Assembly (NCBI GenBank): GCA_964463155.1
Contig: CAYXAY010000011.1
Span: 1-21,852, forward strand
From: an uncultured archaeon
GTDB taxonomy: Archaea > Iainarchaeota > Iainarchaeia > Iainarchaeales > CSSED10-239
Direction of reading: 5' to 3'
Length of the DNA: 21,852 bases
Shown here piece after piece: positions 5,760 to 20,902 of the stretch. How positions within the stretch are numbered: position 1 is the first letter of the stretch; the number at the start of each line of letters is the position of its first letter. A program made the translations under genes and the position numbers. The notes under the pieces were generated by a model. It made no database searches, was not told the origin of the DNA, and worked only from the letters and a program-made list of their open reading frames with translations.

Positions 5760-5879
5760 AACTACCACCCACTTTTCTTAAATTAAATATAATACAGTAT
5801 TAGTAGTGCATGTATTGTATTAATAAATAATGCTGGTTGTTTTTTAAACCGCAGGAAGTATAAAAATAAGAAAAATAAA

Positions 5880-6965
5880 CTAAAAGACCCTTGACTCTCT
5901 TCTTGGAAGCCTAAAGCCATAACTTTTGGTTTTTTCTAGAATCTTGTTTGTAATTAGGTTAATCTCTTGAAGAGTAAGGCGACTTCTGATGTCTGCCTCT
6001 ATTAAAACTGAAGGATAGGTGTATTTTTGGTTAAAGGAAGAAATTTCTGAAACCATTCTAATAAGCTTATCTGTGTATTCCTTTAAGGAAAGATTGAAAT
6101 CTTTATAGTAAACAAACTCCAGCCTTAGAGGGTAATCATTATCAGAAAGCTTTAAGTAGCAACAATAGAGATTATCTCTTATCTCTTCTGGGAAATCAGA
6201 AAGGATTGGATGGTTTTTTGGGTCCTTTGAATATTTGAAGATTCCTGTTCTTTGGTTCTTTTCTAAAAGAGAAAAAACAACAAAAGCATCAAAGAGTTCA
6301 AAGTCAAGGTTTTGGTCATTGAATATTTCATCTTTTAGAATTGAAAAGAGACGATTTGCTCTACAATCTTCTATTGTTCCAGCTAAGAAAATCTTTTTTT
6401 CTCTTGCCTCTTTGTAAACAGAAAGAAACTTTGAGATTAAATGTTCGTATTTTTTCTTTTGAGGACAATCCGTTGTTGGCTTGTTGATGTATTGAGGAAT
6501 GATTGAACCGTCAAATAGAAATAGTTCAAGGTTGCTTTCTTGTTGTCCAAGAATTAGTGAGGAAATTTCTAGTTCTTTTTCCAAACGAGAAATGGAAGTG
6601 TTCCACATTATCTCCTCAAGCTCTAGAGAAGAACTAGAAAGATATGGTTTTGGGAGATTGTACATGTTTGGAAAATATTTGTAGTTTTTTAATTGCCCTT
6701 CTTGATAATCAAAAAATACTCCTGCTTCCTTGATGATTGTGATATTAGCAAAATTAAGTTGCTTTGAGACAAACCCAGAATCAACGCCAGCTGCCTTTAA
6801 AGAAAAGTTTCTGTCAAATGAAATGTTTTCAATAAGTTTTTCCTCTGAGTTGTAAGGATTATTAATTTCAGAAATATTAATAGTGCGAAGACGAGAAATA
6901 AACACTTGGTTCTTGTTATAGGTATTTACCATCTGTTCAACAACGTTGTTAATGTCTTGTTCCAT
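5880..6965 (-). CDS. nurA: NurA-family 5'-3' nuclease
   Basis: 361 aa. AAGVDSGF (first catalytic Asp), the acidic RLEKELE block and LFLFDGSIIP (second Asp motif) occur with NurA-like spacing. The later GTIEDCRANR and YPSVLIEADIRSR blocks also fit. The ATG is 2 nt after the stop of the upstream toxin gene. Confidence 0.65.
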   Translation of the reverse strand: MEQDINNVVEQMVNTYNKNQVFISRLRTINISEINNPYNSEEKLIENISFDRNFSLKAAGVDSGFVSKQLNFANITIIKEAGVFFDYQEGQLKNYKYFPNMYNLPKPYLSSSSLELEEIMWNTSISRLEKELEISSLILGQQESNLELFLFDGSIIPQYINKPTTDCPQKKKYEHLISKFLSVYKEAREKKIFLAGTIEDCRANRLFSILKDEIFNDQNLDFELFDAFVVFSLLEKNQRTGIFKYSKDPKNHPILSDFPEEIRDNLYCCYLKLSDNDYPLRLEFVYYKDFNLSLKEYTDKLIRMVSEISSFNQKYTYPSVLIEADIRSRLTLQEINLITNKILEKTKSYGFRLPRRESRVF

Positions 6966-6967
6966 AT

Positions 6968-7411
6968 TTATTTCTGCTTTTTCCGGATATTATATTTCCT
7001 ATTAGATTTCCAGATAATTTCTGATTCTTGTTTTTTAAGTTTCTTCAAAATCAATTCTTTTTGTTTCTCTGTTAAGTTTTTATAATAAATCTTTTTCTTA
7101 CTTGCTTTTAATAGATTACTAAAATTGTTATCTTTTTCTATATCAAAATATCCAAATAAAGAATATACATTTCTTCTATACCCTACTTTTATTGTGATTA
7201 TTTTTTTATATTCTTCTTTAATATAGTATATTATTCTATAATCTCCAACATGTAAACTTCTAGTGTTTTTTAAAAAATTAGACATTAGTTTACCAAATTC
7301 TGGATTATCATTTAGTTCTCTTATTTTTTTTATAACCTGAATTTTAATAGATTTGTCTAGCTTTTCAAGTTCTTTTTTTGCTTGAGGAAAAAACAACCTT
7401 TCATAAATCAT
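6968..7411 (-). CDS. RelE/ParE-family type II toxin with a 60-residue Lys-rich C-terminal extension
   Basis: The core is ...AKKELEKLDKSIKIQVIKKIRELNDNPEFGK...LHVGDYRIIYYIKEEYKKIITIKVGYRRNVY, which is the RelE/ParE pattern GDYRIIY...V..R..VY. The track ORF starts at a TTG (7420), and I prefer the ATG at 7411. That start overlaps the antitoxin stop by 11 nt. Confidence 0.7.
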   Translation of the reverse strand: MIYERLFFPQAKKELEKLDKSIKIQVIKKIRELNDNPEFGKLMSNFLKNTRSLHVGDYRIIYYIKEEYKKIITIKVGYRRNVYSLFGYFDIEKDNNFSNLLKASKKKIYYKNLTEKQKELILKKLKKQESEIIWKSNRKYNIRKKQK

Positions 7412-7634
7412 TTTCGTCAATTCCTAATTCTTTTAATAATTCTGATTCAGAAATACATTCTCCATTTTTGTAAGCAATTTCTGCTTCTTCTGTAAGTCTT
7501 AATATGTCTAATAATTCTAAATCTGCTAATTTCTTTGCAATAGATCTTCTTGCAACTTCGCTCCATCTTATTTCTGAATACTTTTTCATTCCAGTATACA
7601 TATAATCAGGTATTGTTAAAGTTATATTTGCCAT
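7401..7634 (-). CDS. Ribbon-helix-helix antitoxin paired with the RelE/ParE toxin
   Basis: 77 aa. The N-terminus ITLTIPDYMYTGMKKYSEIRWSEVARRSIAKKL fits a beta-strand plus two helices (RHH), and the tail is acidic. It sits immediately upstream of, and overlaps, the toxin gene. Confidence 0.6.
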   Translation of the reverse strand: MANITLTIPDYMYTGMKKYSEIRWSEVARRSIAKKLADLELLDILRLTEEAEIAYKNGECISESELLKELGIDENDL

Positions 7635-7639
7635 ATAAT

Positions 7640-7655
7640 CACCAAATATCTGGTG
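7640..7655. promoter_or_regulatory. Inverted repeat CACCA-N6-TGGTG just upstream of the antitoxin start (candidate TA operator)
   Basis: CACCAAATATCTGGTG lies 6-21 nt upstream of the ATG at 7634. A TTTAAAATTATT TATA-like element lies further upstream on the minus strand, and a second ATGTG...CACAT repeat is at 7672-7688. Confidence 0.3.
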
Positions 7656-7764
7656 TTTGGAAATAATTTTAAATGTGTGTTTTCACATATTTTCTCGTAA
7701 CTACAAATATATTATAGAATTAGTTATTTAAAAGGTTTTTGAGGGCATATGTCCAATGCGAAAA

Positions 7765-16121: not shown

Positions 16122-16793
16122 ATGAAATTTGACACAATCTATAAGTTTATTGCAGCTAGCTTTGCCATAGCTTATTTTGGTGGTTTGATTGTTGGAATGA
16201 TGGTTGTTAGTTTTGATATTGGAAACTATCAAGAGACAGATATTACTAAGTCTTTTTATCTTACTGGTCAAGTAAGCTTTAGAGATGTTTTTACTGAAAA
16301 CTTAAACCGCGCATTAAAGATGGCAATATTGCCATTCACTTTTCTTATAATAGCAATAAAGTTTGGCTTTAATCATGCAACATATATCTTGTCCCCATTT
16401 TTGGGACAGATTAAGCTTGCTGTTCTTTTTATACCGCAGATATTTTATTTTATTACCTATGTTTTGTTTTCCGTAATTGGGTTAAAGATAATTGCAACCA
16501 CTGTTTTGTTTATTGCCAATAGATATTTGATTAAAGGAAATAAGCAATTTGTCAATATAAAAATATTTGGAACTCATGATGTGCTGTTATTGTATCTTGC
16601 ATTATTGTCTCTAACAATCGGCACATTCACACAGATATATCTTTCAAGGGTGTTTTTCATATTCTTGATTAATTATCAACTAATCACCTATGTATTGATT
16701 CTGTTGATATATGTTGCAATCATTGCATTTTCATTATATATAATTTATCAGACAATAAAGTCTATTTTAAAAGAGAATAAACATGGGTATTGA
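16122..16793 (+). CDS. Polytopic membrane protein (about 6 TM), weakly SpoIIM/DUF95-like
   Basis: 223 aa that is almost entirely hydrophobic helices. FRDVFTENLNRALKMAILPFTFLIIAIKFGFNHATY loosely resembles the F..NL..........G.NG block of the DUF95/SpoIIM family (low certainty). Its stop overlaps the downstream ATPase start by 11 nt. Confidence 0.6.
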   Translation: MKFDTIYKFIAASFAIAYFGGLIVGMMVVSFDIGNYQETDITKSFYLTGQVSFRDVFTENLNRALKMAILPFTFLIIAIKFGFNHATYILSPFLGQIKLAVLFIPQIFYFITYVLFSVIGLKIIATTVLFIANRYLIKGNKQFVNIKIFGTHDVLLLYLALLSLTIGTFTQIYLSRVFFIFLINYQLITYVLILLIYVAIIAFSLYIIYQTIKSILKENKHGY

Positions 16794-19046: not shown

Positions 19047-19958
19047 CTAATGGTTTTCTTTAATCTCAATAAAGGCGTGATATGCTGCAATAGCTCCTTG
19101 GCTTGCAGAAGTCACCACTTGTTTTAAATCTGTGGAATTTGTGGCATCACCTGCTGCAAATATACCTTCTTTGTTTGTTTTTTGGTTTTTATCAACAACT
19201 ATATAGTCTTTTTCATCTAAGGAAATTTCGGTGTTTTTCAAAAGCTCAGTGTTAGGAACAGAACCAATCTCTATAAACAGACCATCAACTATTAGTTCTT
19301 TATTTGTGTTTGTTTTTATTCCCGTTAGTTTTTCTTTACCAAGAAGCTCTGTTATCTCTGTATTGTAAAGTATTTCTATTTTTGGATTATTAATTACTAA
19401 GTCTGTCCAGATCTTTTCTGCTCGCAATTGTTCTTTTCTATAAATCAAATAAACTTTGCTAGCGAGGTCTGCTAAAAGAAGAGCAGAAGTAACTGCAGCG
19501 TCACTTCCTCCAACAACCCCAACAACTTTATTTTTGTAAAAACCACCATCACATGTTGCACAATAGCTTATTCCTTTGCCTATTAATTCTTTTTCTTTGT
19601 CAATACCAAGCCTTGCTCTTGTTCTGCCAATAGCTAGAATTATCTTTTTGCTTTTAATTGTTCTTTGATTAGAATTAACAATAAATTCTTCTTTTTCCTT
19701 ATTGATTGTCATAACTTTTTCAAAAAAAACCTCTACTCCAAAAGACTGTGTTTGATCTAAAGTTTTTTCTGCAAATTCCATTCCAGATATTTCCTTTAAT
19801 CCAGGGAAATTACAAACCTTGTGAGCATAGGCGACTGCTCCGCCAAAGGAATCACTAAACACTATTGTCTTTAGGCCATATCTTGAAGAATATATTGCAG
19901 CAGTCAGTCCTGCTGGGCCCCCCCCAACAATCGCAACATCATAAATAGTTTCGCTCAT
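19047..19958 (-). CDS. trxB: Thioredoxin-disulfide reductase (low-molecular-weight TrxR)
   Basis: 303 aa. The FAD motif is VAIVGGGPAGLTAA, the redox-active site is CATCDG, the second dinucleotide motif is VVGGSDAAV, and GIFAAGDA is near the C-terminus. The start overlaps the upstream stop (ATGA). Confidence 0.9.
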   Translation of the reverse strand: MSETIYDVAIVGGGPAGLTAAIYSSRYGLKTIVFSDSFGGAVAYAHKVCNFPGLKEISGMEFAEKTLDQTQSFGVEVFFEKVMTINKEKEEFIVNSNQRTIKSKKIILAIGRTRARLGIDKEKELIGKGISYCATCDGGFYKNKVVGVVGGSDAAVTSALLLADLASKVYLIYRKEQLRAEKIWTDLVINNPKIEILYNTEITELLGKEKLTGIKTNTNKELIVDGLFIEIGSVPNTELLKNTEISLDEKDYIVVDKNQKTNKEGIFAAGDATNSTDLKQVVTSASQGAIAAYHAFIEIKENH

Positions 19959-20365
19959 TTTTTCTTCCTCTTCTTAATAAATATATCTTCATACAACTTA
20001 TTATAATCCCTTTTCTTTGCTTTTAATCCTAGAGATCTATCAATAGATTCCATACCATATCTTATATTTTCGGGACTAACTTCAATTGTTGGAATGCCAC
20101 ACTCCTCTAAAGCAGCAAAAAATTCTCTATAGGTGATACCAGCAAGCTTTGCCCCCCCAGCAATATTAACTTCTTTGTTTTTGTAGGCTTTTAGAGCCAT
20201 GCCAAGCTTATATTCCTTTAACCCTTTTTCAATTAACTTTCTTAAAAATTCAGACTCTGTTAGATTTTCTTCTTTTGCAATATTGTAAGCCATTTCAGAC
20301 ATTGCATCAGTTAATCTTAATGTTTTTACGTTCTTTCTTTCACAAACAGATTTTACTTTTTTCAT
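19955..20365 (-). CDS. Antitoxin-like protein: N-terminal ribbon-helix-helix fused to a UPF0175 (COG2886)-like domain
   Basis: KTLRLTDAMSEMAYNIAKEENLTESEFLRKLIEKGL fits RHH. LGMALKAYKNKEVNIAGGAKLAGITYREFFAALEECGIP fits the UPF0175 pattern. I prefer the ATG at 20365, whereas the track ORF starts at a GTG (20374). Confidence 0.6.
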   Translation of the reverse strand: MKKVKSVCERKNVKTLRLTDAMSEMAYNIAKEENLTESEFLRKLIEKGLKEYKLGMALKAYKNKEVNIAGGAKLAGITYREFFAALEECGIPTIEVSPENIRYGMESIDRSLGLKAKKRDYNKLYEDIFIKKRKKK

Positions 20366-20377
20366 AAATATCACATT

Positions 20378-20902
20378 TTACATCTTATGTAGCGCTTCTC
20401 TCCCATTCTCTAGATACTCTAATTTCATTGATTTAAATTTTTCTAAAATATTTAATTTCTCTAATGCATCTTCTTTTGTAATCTTGCTATTTTCAACTAA
20501 ATGCAAACAAAAATCAACTATGTTTGTAGCAGCTATGCTATTTCTTTTACAGAAATCATAAGAAATTCCGTTATCAATAAACACAATAATTTTTTCTTCC
20601 TTTGCTAAAGCTAAACTAAATAATTCCCCGGAATCTTTTGTTATCTGACTATCAATGTCACTTGGAACATTCTTTGGGTTTTTTATTTGTATTTCGCCTT
20701 CTTGTTTTAGGATACTATATATTTCTAAATCTAAAGTCAAATATAATTTGATTCTTGTAAAGGCTTGTAACTCTTCTTCCACTTTTTTAGTAACAACAAT
20801 ATCCCAAAGACTAGTAAAAGCATCAACTAAACCTAACTTTACAAGATGAATCCAAAAAGAAGTATCGACTACTGCTTTTGGTTTGTGTTTAACTTTAGGC
20901 AC
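20378..20902 (-). CDS. PIN-like domain protein (COG2405 / DUF3368-type putative toxin)
   Basis: 174 aa. The N-terminal AVVDTSFWIHLVKLGL has the PIN first acidic motif. The remainder follows with ...KKVEEEL..., ...SGELFSLALAKEEKIIVFIDNG... and ...AATNIVDFCLHLVENSKI. It apparently uses a GTG start with a TTTAAATATTT TATA-like box about 30 nt upstream, so it may be leaderless. Confidence 0.6.
   Translation of the reverse strand: MPKVKHKPKAVVDTSFWIHLVKLGLVDAFTSLWDIVVTKKVEEELQAFTRIKLYLTLDLEIYSILKQEGEIQIKNPKNVPSDIDSQITKDSGELFSLALAKEEKIIVFIDNGISYDFCKRNSIAATNIVDFCLHLVENSKITKEDALEKLNILEKFKSMKLEYLENGREALHKM

Follow-up and report, generated by a model that had tools for sequence, protein, structure and literature searches.

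A 21,852-nucleotide (nt) stretch of contig CAYXAY010000011.1 (positions 1-21,852) from an uncultured archaeon (assembly GCA_964463155.1), referred to here as the window (W), carries on its minus strand, at positions 5880-7655, a compact trio of genes: a putative ribbon-helix-helix (RHH) antitoxin gene, a RelE-fold toxin gene, and nurA, encoding a DNA-end nuclease (Table 1). An earlier note on this DNA had described the three as a single toxin-antitoxin (TA) operon in which nurA is the third gene. Coordinates taken straight from the DNA bear out the gene order, the 11-nt overlap between the antitoxin and toxin genes, and the gap of 2 nt between the toxin stop and the nurA start codon. The trio is flanked by htpX upstream and by the gene for a 149-amino-acid (aa) protein downstream, in a window that is AT-rich (30.6% G+C) and archaeal, encoding Alba and L44e; homologues of its NurA are named 'Candidatus ainarchaeum' or 'Iainarchaeum' by their sources. 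Throughout, L-numbers denote related loci or lineages, and P-numbers denote toxin homologues.

Table 1. Positions in the window of the gene trio, its associated DNA elements and the HerA-like gene (ORF, open reading frame; AF2, AlphaFold2)
Feature	Coordinates	Strand	Remarks
Antitoxin, 77 aa, putative RHH_12 type	7401..7634	-	ATG 7634, stop 7403-7401; PF26688 on homologues
RelE-fold toxin ORF, 147 aa	6968..7411	-	ATG 7411, stop TAA 6970-6968
RelE-fold toxin core, residues 1-88	7148..7411	-	PF05016, PDB profile, AF2 and Foldseek
Toxin C-terminal extension, residues 89-147 and stop	6968..7147	-	Linker FSNLLKASKKKIYY, then lysine-rich helical tail
nurA, 361 aa	5880..6965	-	ATG 6965; Pfam NurA, AF2 fold
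TATA-like box TTTAAAAT	7666..7673	-	39-32 nt upstream of the antitoxin ATG
ATGTG-N6-CACAT palindrome (core TGTG-N4-CACA)	7673..7688	-	Arms 7688-7684 and 7677-7673; candidate operator of the RHH antitoxin
CACCA-N6-TGGTG inverted repeat	7640..7655	-	CACCA 7655-7651, TGGTG 7644-7640; read in the window DNA
Shine-Dalgarno-like GGTGAT	7638..7643	-	3 nt before the antitoxin ATG
AT-rich 35-nt element ccttttaaataactaattctataatatatttgtag	7701..7735	-	Downstream of htpX; conserved in W, L006, L017, L012, L001, L004
TATA-like box AAATATAATAT	6987..6997	-	Within the 3' end of the toxin gene; 32-22 nt before the nurA ATG
Two T5 runs	5862..5875	-	Just past the nurA stop; likely archaeal oligo-T terminator
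HerA-like ORF, 431 aa	16783-18078	+	DUF87 and several PADLOC HerA models; only one in the window, ~10 kb from nurA

The NurA and RelE/ParE assignments made in the earlier note are confirmed by Pfam profile searches and predicted folds. NurA matches PF09376 over residues 58-293 (46 bits against a cutoff of 21), as do 70 of 70 homologues. A sequence-only profile search of the PDB with NurA returned no match even at E=10; its AF2 model (pLDDT 91.7) has the RNase H-like NurA fold, with 2YGK (E=3.9e-10), 9X1L, 3TAZ, 7F6D, and 1ZUP as the top Foldseek matches. Across 32 homologues, no substitution occurs at the acidic residues D62, E131, D152, and D325, and E115/E118 are nearly invariant; the catalytic acidic residues of Sulfolobus solfataricus NurA are D58, E116, and D133 (PMC3326311). 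The protein is an ordinary member of its family, a DNA-end resection nuclease, and its gene is kept in every relative, whatever its upstream content.

In the toxin, residues 9-83 match PF05016 (ParE_toxin, 41.5 bits). Because its profile retrieves RelE proteins from the PDB (best E=1.8e-17) and its confidently modeled AF2 core superposes on RelE structures (Foldseek target TM-scores of 0.8-0.88), it is assigned as RelE-like within the RelE/ParE superfamily; its best matches in sequence and fold are the RelE structures 2KHE, 3G5O, 9G12, 4FXE, 3BPQ, and 1WMI. A tblastn search of plasmids with the toxin gave no match. At residue 78 (7178-7180), the window toxin has a tyrosine in place of the GHRxxxY-motif histidine found in every other long-tailed family member, and this replacement at a nearly invariant position might weaken the toxin. 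For the 77-aa antitoxin, neither the local Pfam library nor the PDB gave a match. Weak NCBIfam matches to VapB/RelB, together with the precomputed PF26688 (RHH_12) annotation of near-identical homologues, point to an RHH protein of the RHH_12 family. Pairwise ratios of nonsynonymous to synonymous substitution rates (dN/dS) among W, L006, and L017 are 0.07-0.11 for the RHH gene, 0.065-0.08 for the RelE core, 0.08-0.23 for the RelE tail, and 0.07-0.10 for NurA, indicating purifying selection on all three genes; the cassette is thus no pseudogene in the window lineage.

Beyond its core, the toxin carries a C-terminal extension. The linker FSNLLKASKKKIYY at the start of this extension is common to all family members, including nurA-less copies and fusions to a NUDIX domain, and is therefore part of the toxin. 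The remainder resembles antitoxins: an RHH hidden Markov model (HMM) matches the tails of the 162-aa toxin versions (E=4e-5 to 6e-8), the tail profile aligns with RHH proteins in hhalign (97% probability, E=2.8e-11), and the P0072 toxin, which is 75% identical to that of the window, has a C-terminal end ('...SRKEFAEGKGIKYSDLKKEMGFK') that is almost the same as the C terminus of the L019 antitoxin. The L001 tail is similar at the DNA level to the 3' end of a free-standing RHH gene in L018, and the source of the L093 tail is the C-terminal half of a different antitoxin, from a neighboring TA pair. The window tail, a shortened version of the P0072 type that AF2 models as a low-confidence helix, derives, judging by these alignments, from a second RHH-type (antitoxin-like) gene fused in frame. 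The tails composed of antitoxin pieces (W 6968-7147; P0072; L001:5510-5998; L093:7457-8017) include the C-terminal segment that usually binds the toxin in RHH antitoxins, and it is possible that the tail neutralizes the toxin in cis. An alternative origin as a collapsed NUDIX domain, considered on account of the 'LKSPKK' linker held in common with the RelE::NUDIX fusions, was ruled out: the nurA-less P0077 toxin also has the linker, and the rest of the tail matches RHH proteins.

The position at which the tail terminates is shared by different upstream frames. In the crown clade, an upstream ORF of whatever kind ends at the same point of the nurA flank, the TAA within GAAATAAAYATG, 2 nt before the ATG; in the basal clade, the end lies 17 nt inside nurA. 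Since varied upstream ORFs have this fixed end point, the 2-nt gap is attributable, at least in part, to the nurA 5' flank itself.

To place the trio in its phylogenetic context, NurA relatives were gathered from genome and metagenome collections, giving a comparison of ~30 related lineages; for each nurA, the preceding 2.5 kb were classified using HMMs built from the window family, and the resulting states were mapped on a NurA tree. In the clade with 48-100% NurA identity, htpX is an almost constant upstream anchor, and four states are found between htpX and nurA. The first, present in 11 lineages that span the full 48-100% identity range, is the complete RHH-RelE-nurA trio (W, L006-L011, L017, L001/L013/L014, L012, L004, L019, L039, and L093/L094), with the toxin stop either 2 nt before the nurA ATG or in a 16-17 nt overlap with nurA. 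The second has an RHH gene followed by a RelE::NUDIX fusion and nurA (L023 and L034/L030; both domains identified by Pfam), the fusions being single ORFs directly upstream of nurA (L023:3142-3945; L034:3192-3974, and the same in L030). The third has an RHH-type ORF alone abutting nurA (L002/L015, 44 aa; L018, 66 aa; L046, 106 aa; L035/L037/L040, 91 aa; and L033); a reading of L002 as TA-free was rejected after inspection of its DNA revealed the 44-aa RHH stub, which the ORF list had missed. In L031 and L032, the RHH gene is degraded or pseudogenized. The fourth state has no cassette, with the htpX end 8-218 nt before nurA (L036, L029, L038, L024/L025, L028, and L041) or with other genes upstream of nurA (L020-L022, L026, and L027). 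Altogether, at least nine lineages have no cassette gene before nurA, and in seven of these htpX immediately precedes it. In the outgroup with 33-40% NurA identity, the cassette occurs in none of ~40 loci. Whether the TA pair precedes nurA in relatives, as the earlier note had asked, depends on the lineage: it does so in the 11 lineages with the trio, but absence of the linkage from a related genome, which the note had named as grounds for refutation, is seen repeatedly, even among near-identical strains.

Among such strains, L017 and L018, whose nurA genes are 99.2% identical in DNA, have the full trio versus the 66-aa RHH only; L034 and L038 (98.9%) have RHH-RelE::NUDIX versus nothing; and L093 and L040 (93%) differ in TA content. 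In L033, whose nurA is ~97% identical to those of both L034 and L038, an RHH gene overlaps nurA by 4 nt. This RHH is the same as that of L034 over 70 residues, identifying the L033 arrangement as a deletion derivative of an L034-like cassette.

The pair is also found on its own. In L097 and L098, an RHH_12-RelE pair occurs without nurA, with a toxin (P0077) 58% identical to that of the window and with the same palindrome and TATA box. The existence of such copies indicates that the pair is an autonomous module and that nurA is independent of it. At both loci (L098:93-2122 and L097:4784-6414), the nurA-less pair is followed after 300-350 nt by a RelA_SpoT gene resembling small alarmone synthetases; the RelA_SpoT domain was seen in L098, the L097 gene being incomplete. 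Two lineages have a further gene between htpX and the cassette, encoding a 2H-phosphoesterase/LigT-like protein of 188-189 aa (L002:5219-5788; L019:2600-3166), and these insertions are further evidence that the htpX-nurA spacer is an insertion hotspot.

Taken together, these observations favor, with moderate confidence, an interpretation in which an autonomous RelBE-like type II TA cassette resides in a strain-variable hotspot between htpX and nurA and has been compacted onto a housekeeping nurA gene in archaea with small, DPANN-like genomes. The cassette, an RHH_12 antitoxin with a RelE-fold toxin, would bring its own TATA promoter and abutting palindrome, through which the antitoxin or the TA complex would repress it. 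Repeated deletions and fusions in this compact locus may have removed the space between cassette and nurA, and the toxin frame would now extend through the remnant of the second RHH-type gene to the conserved TAA in the nurA flank, producing the 2-nt gap. Transcription from the TA promoter probably runs on into nurA in the window, where translation of nurA may start by termination-reinitiation; this would be a by-product of compaction and no evidence for NurA as a TA component. Of the three options that the earlier note had offered, this interpretation combines insertion of a TA cassette before nurA with operon compaction, both of which are retained, whereas the third, a three-component conflict module containing a nuclease, is not supported because nurA and the pair each occur without the other.

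In its developed form, that third option would be a functional stress or conflict module of three or more genes, in which RHH and RelE gate NurA, loss of the antitoxin de-represses the nuclease, and NUDIX acts as a fourth player. It can draw on the tight abutment of RHH/RelE on nurA throughout the 48-100% identity range, on the purifying selection on all genes, on the recurrence of NUDIX both fused to RelE (L023 and L034) and downstream of nurA (L093), and on other TA types before nurA at two outgroup loci (L057 and L081). Nevertheless, it is improbable, given that near-identical strains lose or reduce the cassette yet keep nurA, that at least nine lineages have no such gene before nurA, that RHH remnants are pseudogenized in L031 and L032, that the TA pair is found without nurA, that nurA genes accompanied by the cassette and those lacking it appear to be orthologs under equal constraint, and that none of the three proteins (NurA, the RelE toxin, and the RHH protein) matches a PADLOC model. 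A scheme in which NurA stands under the TA promoter and stress-triggered antitoxin loss switches on both RelE and NurA, coupling translational arrest to DNA-end processing, with NUDIX and the tails as further parts of a nurA-anchored module, would have a low chance of being correct, and functional wiring of nurA to the cassette is, more generally, quite doubtful.

The loci on which this option draws have the following composition. A separate NUDIX gene (L093:9158-9883), itself weakly matching DUF7347, lies directly downstream of nurA in L093, making NUDIX recurrent at the locus. In L057 (3390-3991), whose distant NurA has 34-36% identity, an AbrB-like gene and a weak PIN match (22.7 bits, below the cutoff of 23.6) end 0 nt before nurA, and in L081 (2951-3903; also 34-36%), nucleotidyltransferase-like (MNT) and HEPN genes end 79 nt before it. 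These other TA types thus precede nurA in 2 of ~40 distant loci, a count that includes a nucleotidyltransferase call made without a profile and for which a background rate was not estimated.

The cassette promoter was examined in the spacer downstream of htpX. The CACCA-N6-TGGTG inverted repeat to which the earlier note had drawn attention at the 5' end of the operon is indeed present, but a role as operator could not be sustained: at least one perfect 5+5 inverted repeat appears in 87% of dinucleotide shuffles of the 130-nt spacer, the CACCA arm is unique to the window and missing from every relative compared, and the TGGTG arm is part of the GGTGAT Shine-Dalgarno sequence. Nearly all relatives have the GGTGA core of this sequence before the RHH gene (GTGATA in L097/L098), and in the window several other first genes are likewise preceded by GGTGAT. 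A different palindrome adjoins the 5' side of the TATA-like box. The pattern TGTG-N(2-13)-CACA, which arises in 2% of shuffles, is found at the same position in 13 of 14 RHH promoters (12 of 13 distinct sequences), including those of the nurA-less copies L097 and L098; in the exception, L001, 15 nt separate the same arms. It is therefore likely that TGTG-N4-CACA beside the TATA box, and not CACCA-N6-TGGTG, is the operator, and from the general behavior of RHH antitoxins it would be expected that the antitoxin or the TA complex binds this palindrome to repress transcription. A box of the form TTTWWAAW occurs at -39 to -43 in 11 of 13 distinct promoters and at -56 in L023, with no match in L019; given the general layout of archaeal promoters, the TTTAAAAT box of the window is presumed to be the promoter element of the cassette.

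Two further elements lie in the same spacer. The AT-rich element ccttttaaataactaattctataatatatttgtag sits directly 5' of the nurA-proximal RHH gene or stub in L002 and L018, and could be either an htpX 3' signal or terminator or an alternative promoter. Around the predicted transcription start, downstream of the TATA box and ahead of the Shine-Dalgarno sequence, there is a CCAAA...TTTGG inverted repeat (7644-7660, minus strand), which is kept only in window-type lineages, at the same position in L006 and L017 and as a perfect 8+8 repeat in L006, and could be a second operator or a hairpin masking the Shine-Dalgarno sequence. A scan for bacterial-type promoters and terminators was uninformative, the host being an archaeon.

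How nurA itself is transcribed bears on a second explanation, according to which nurA is an independent transcription unit with a leaderless-type promoter within the final ~35 nt of the toxin gene, and the TA pair only touches it. For such a leaderless nurA mRNA, the box AAATATAATAT could serve as the internal promoter. In several window genes that lack a Shine-Dalgarno sequence, the ATG is preceded at ~22-36 nt by a TATA-like box, suggesting leaderless mRNAs; nurA likewise lacks a Shine-Dalgarno sequence, and its box matches in position those before L44e, the 223-aa ORF, and the MBL gene, while that of the 149-aa gene is more distant by a few nt. In W, L006, and L017, no block of the tail 3' end is better conserved than this 11-mer, and A/T-rich boxes are also found in the last 35 nt before nurA in L018 and L034/L038. 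The tolerance of nurA in near-identical strains for wholly different upstream genes would, moreover, be explained most easily by a promoter very close to its ATG. On the other hand, the block also encodes a conserved KYNI, and base composition alone gives it no significance, 13-nt windows at this G+C content commonly containing an 8-mer of A and T only (15-20% by chance, as a rough estimate). No well-placed box is present in L001-type and L002 sequences, and the gene before nurA either overlaps it or stops 8-22 nt short of it in L033, L036, and L029. An independent nurA unit is accordingly considered unlikely, if still a serious contender.

For the favored interpretation of a compacted cassette with read-through into nurA, L033 is informative, as it leaves no room for a separate nurA promoter: with its RHH gene overlapping nurA by 4 nt, expression of nurA from the RHH promoter must at least be tolerated. 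In the window, no spacer parts the toxin gene from nurA, nurA lacks a Shine-Dalgarno sequence, and no run of five or more T residues occurs between 7272 and the nurA start, in contrast to the two T5 runs past its stop; co-transcription of nurA with the cassette is plausible from these features.

A third explanation starts from the toxin-free state. Here the ancestral unit would be a small RHH repressor translationally coupled to nurA, with RelE captured later and the present 'antitoxin' serving mainly as a nurA regulator. Toxin-free RHH ORFs abut nurA in both crown and basal subclades (L002/L015, L018, L046, and L035/L037/L040), and the L001-type toxin tails look like remnants of such an RHH. 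At the same time, the L033 arrangement is a recent deletion derivative, nurA-proximal RHH copies are without the TGTG/CACA palindrome, L031 and L032 have only pseudogenized versions and many lineages none, and RHH sequences are too short for orthology to be resolved. The chance that this explanation is correct is regarded as very slight.

Several observations nonetheless count against the compacted-cassette interpretation. The cassette stays at one locus over deep divergence and its TA genes are as constrained as nurA, both of which would also fit a selected functional link. In L002, L018, L033, L035, L037, L040, and L046, an RHH-type ORF abuts nurA with no toxin between, and a dedicated RHH regulator of nurA could be ancestral. 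Gain and loss can be told apart with clarity only in L033, the assignment as RHH depends on precomputed Pfam annotation and weak NCBIfam scores, and a single RHH-RelE-nurA transcript is a prediction from sequence.

The window cassette has much in common with RelBE-type modules, such as Escherichia coli RelBE and the aRelBE modules of Pyrococcus horikoshii and Methanocaldococcus jannaschii. In both cases a small upstream antitoxin gene overlaps that of a RelE-fold toxin with a core of ~90 aa, a palindromic element lies at the promoter, and stand-alone pairs are found elsewhere. In contrast to these modules, the window antitoxin is assigned to the RHH_12 family and not to RelB proper, the toxin has a C-terminal extension of ~60 aa derived in part from an antitoxin-like gene, its stop abuts a housekeeping gene, and toxicity, ribosome-dependent mRNA cleavage, and autoregulation are putative for the window pair. 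Fused or tripartite TA systems are a second point of reference, for instance fused toxin-antitoxins of the CapRel type and TA pairs accompanied by a third gene for a regulator or chaperone. The window toxin resembles the former in its in-cis segment similar to an antitoxin C terminus, and the trio resembles the latter in having a third gene packed in the same orientation with no spacer; it differs in that the tail is of low confidence in AF2 and the presence of the third gene is not tied to that of the pair. Literature on NurA in connection with TA systems, and on TA systems of DPANN archaea, yielded no description of this arrangement.

If the compacted-cassette interpretation is correct, the locus presents a well-documented TA cassette at a hotspot that varies between strains of an archaeon with a streamlined genome, and it illustrates how deletions join adjacent reading frames and bring a selfish module up against a housekeeping gene. 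It also yields TGTG-N4-CACA at the TATA box as a candidate operator for RHH_12 antitoxins, a family that has received little study, and it serves as a warning that tight packing in compact genomes should not be read as functional linkage. Were nurA expression to depend on the TA promoter, DNA repair capacity would be tied to TA regulation.

With respect to its wider context, nurA had been described in the earlier note as detached from herA-mre11-rad50, the operon in which these genes are found together in thermophilic archaea (PMC3326311). None of the three is adjacent to nurA in the window, as judged by Pfam gene content, so that this part of the description holds. NurA nucleases act together with a HerA ATPase, whose gene is as a rule their neighbor. 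Outgroup relatives are also without the four-gene operon, having nurA 1-5 kb from a DUF87/HerA gene and, at one locus, ~5 kb from rad50; a 'detached' nurA is therefore not unusual in the group. Compared with the operons of Sulfolobus and Pyrococcus, the window NurA has the same fold (2YGK being its top match) and conserved acidic residues, and differs in its neighbors, htpX and the 149-aa gene in place of herA, mre11, and rad50.

The HerA-like ORF elsewhere in the window is 23% identical to the DUF87/HerA gene found near nurA in an outgroup. It overlaps by 11 nt an upstream 223-aa ORF (16122-16793, plus strand) without a family or PDB match. This ORF was considered as a second NurA and ruled out (hhalign probability of 0.04%, no PDB match). 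The HerA-like ORF could be the HerA of the clade or could form a HerA-based defense pair with the 223-aa ORF.

Other parts of the window also resemble TA or defense genes. On the minus strand, a UPF0175 protein (19955-20374) and a 174-aa protein (20378-20902) both match the PADLOC model PDC-S70, forming a second TA-like or candidate defense pair, and on the plus strand, an AAA_14/DUF4143 ATPase (287-1552) matches PDC-S01 at 215 bits.

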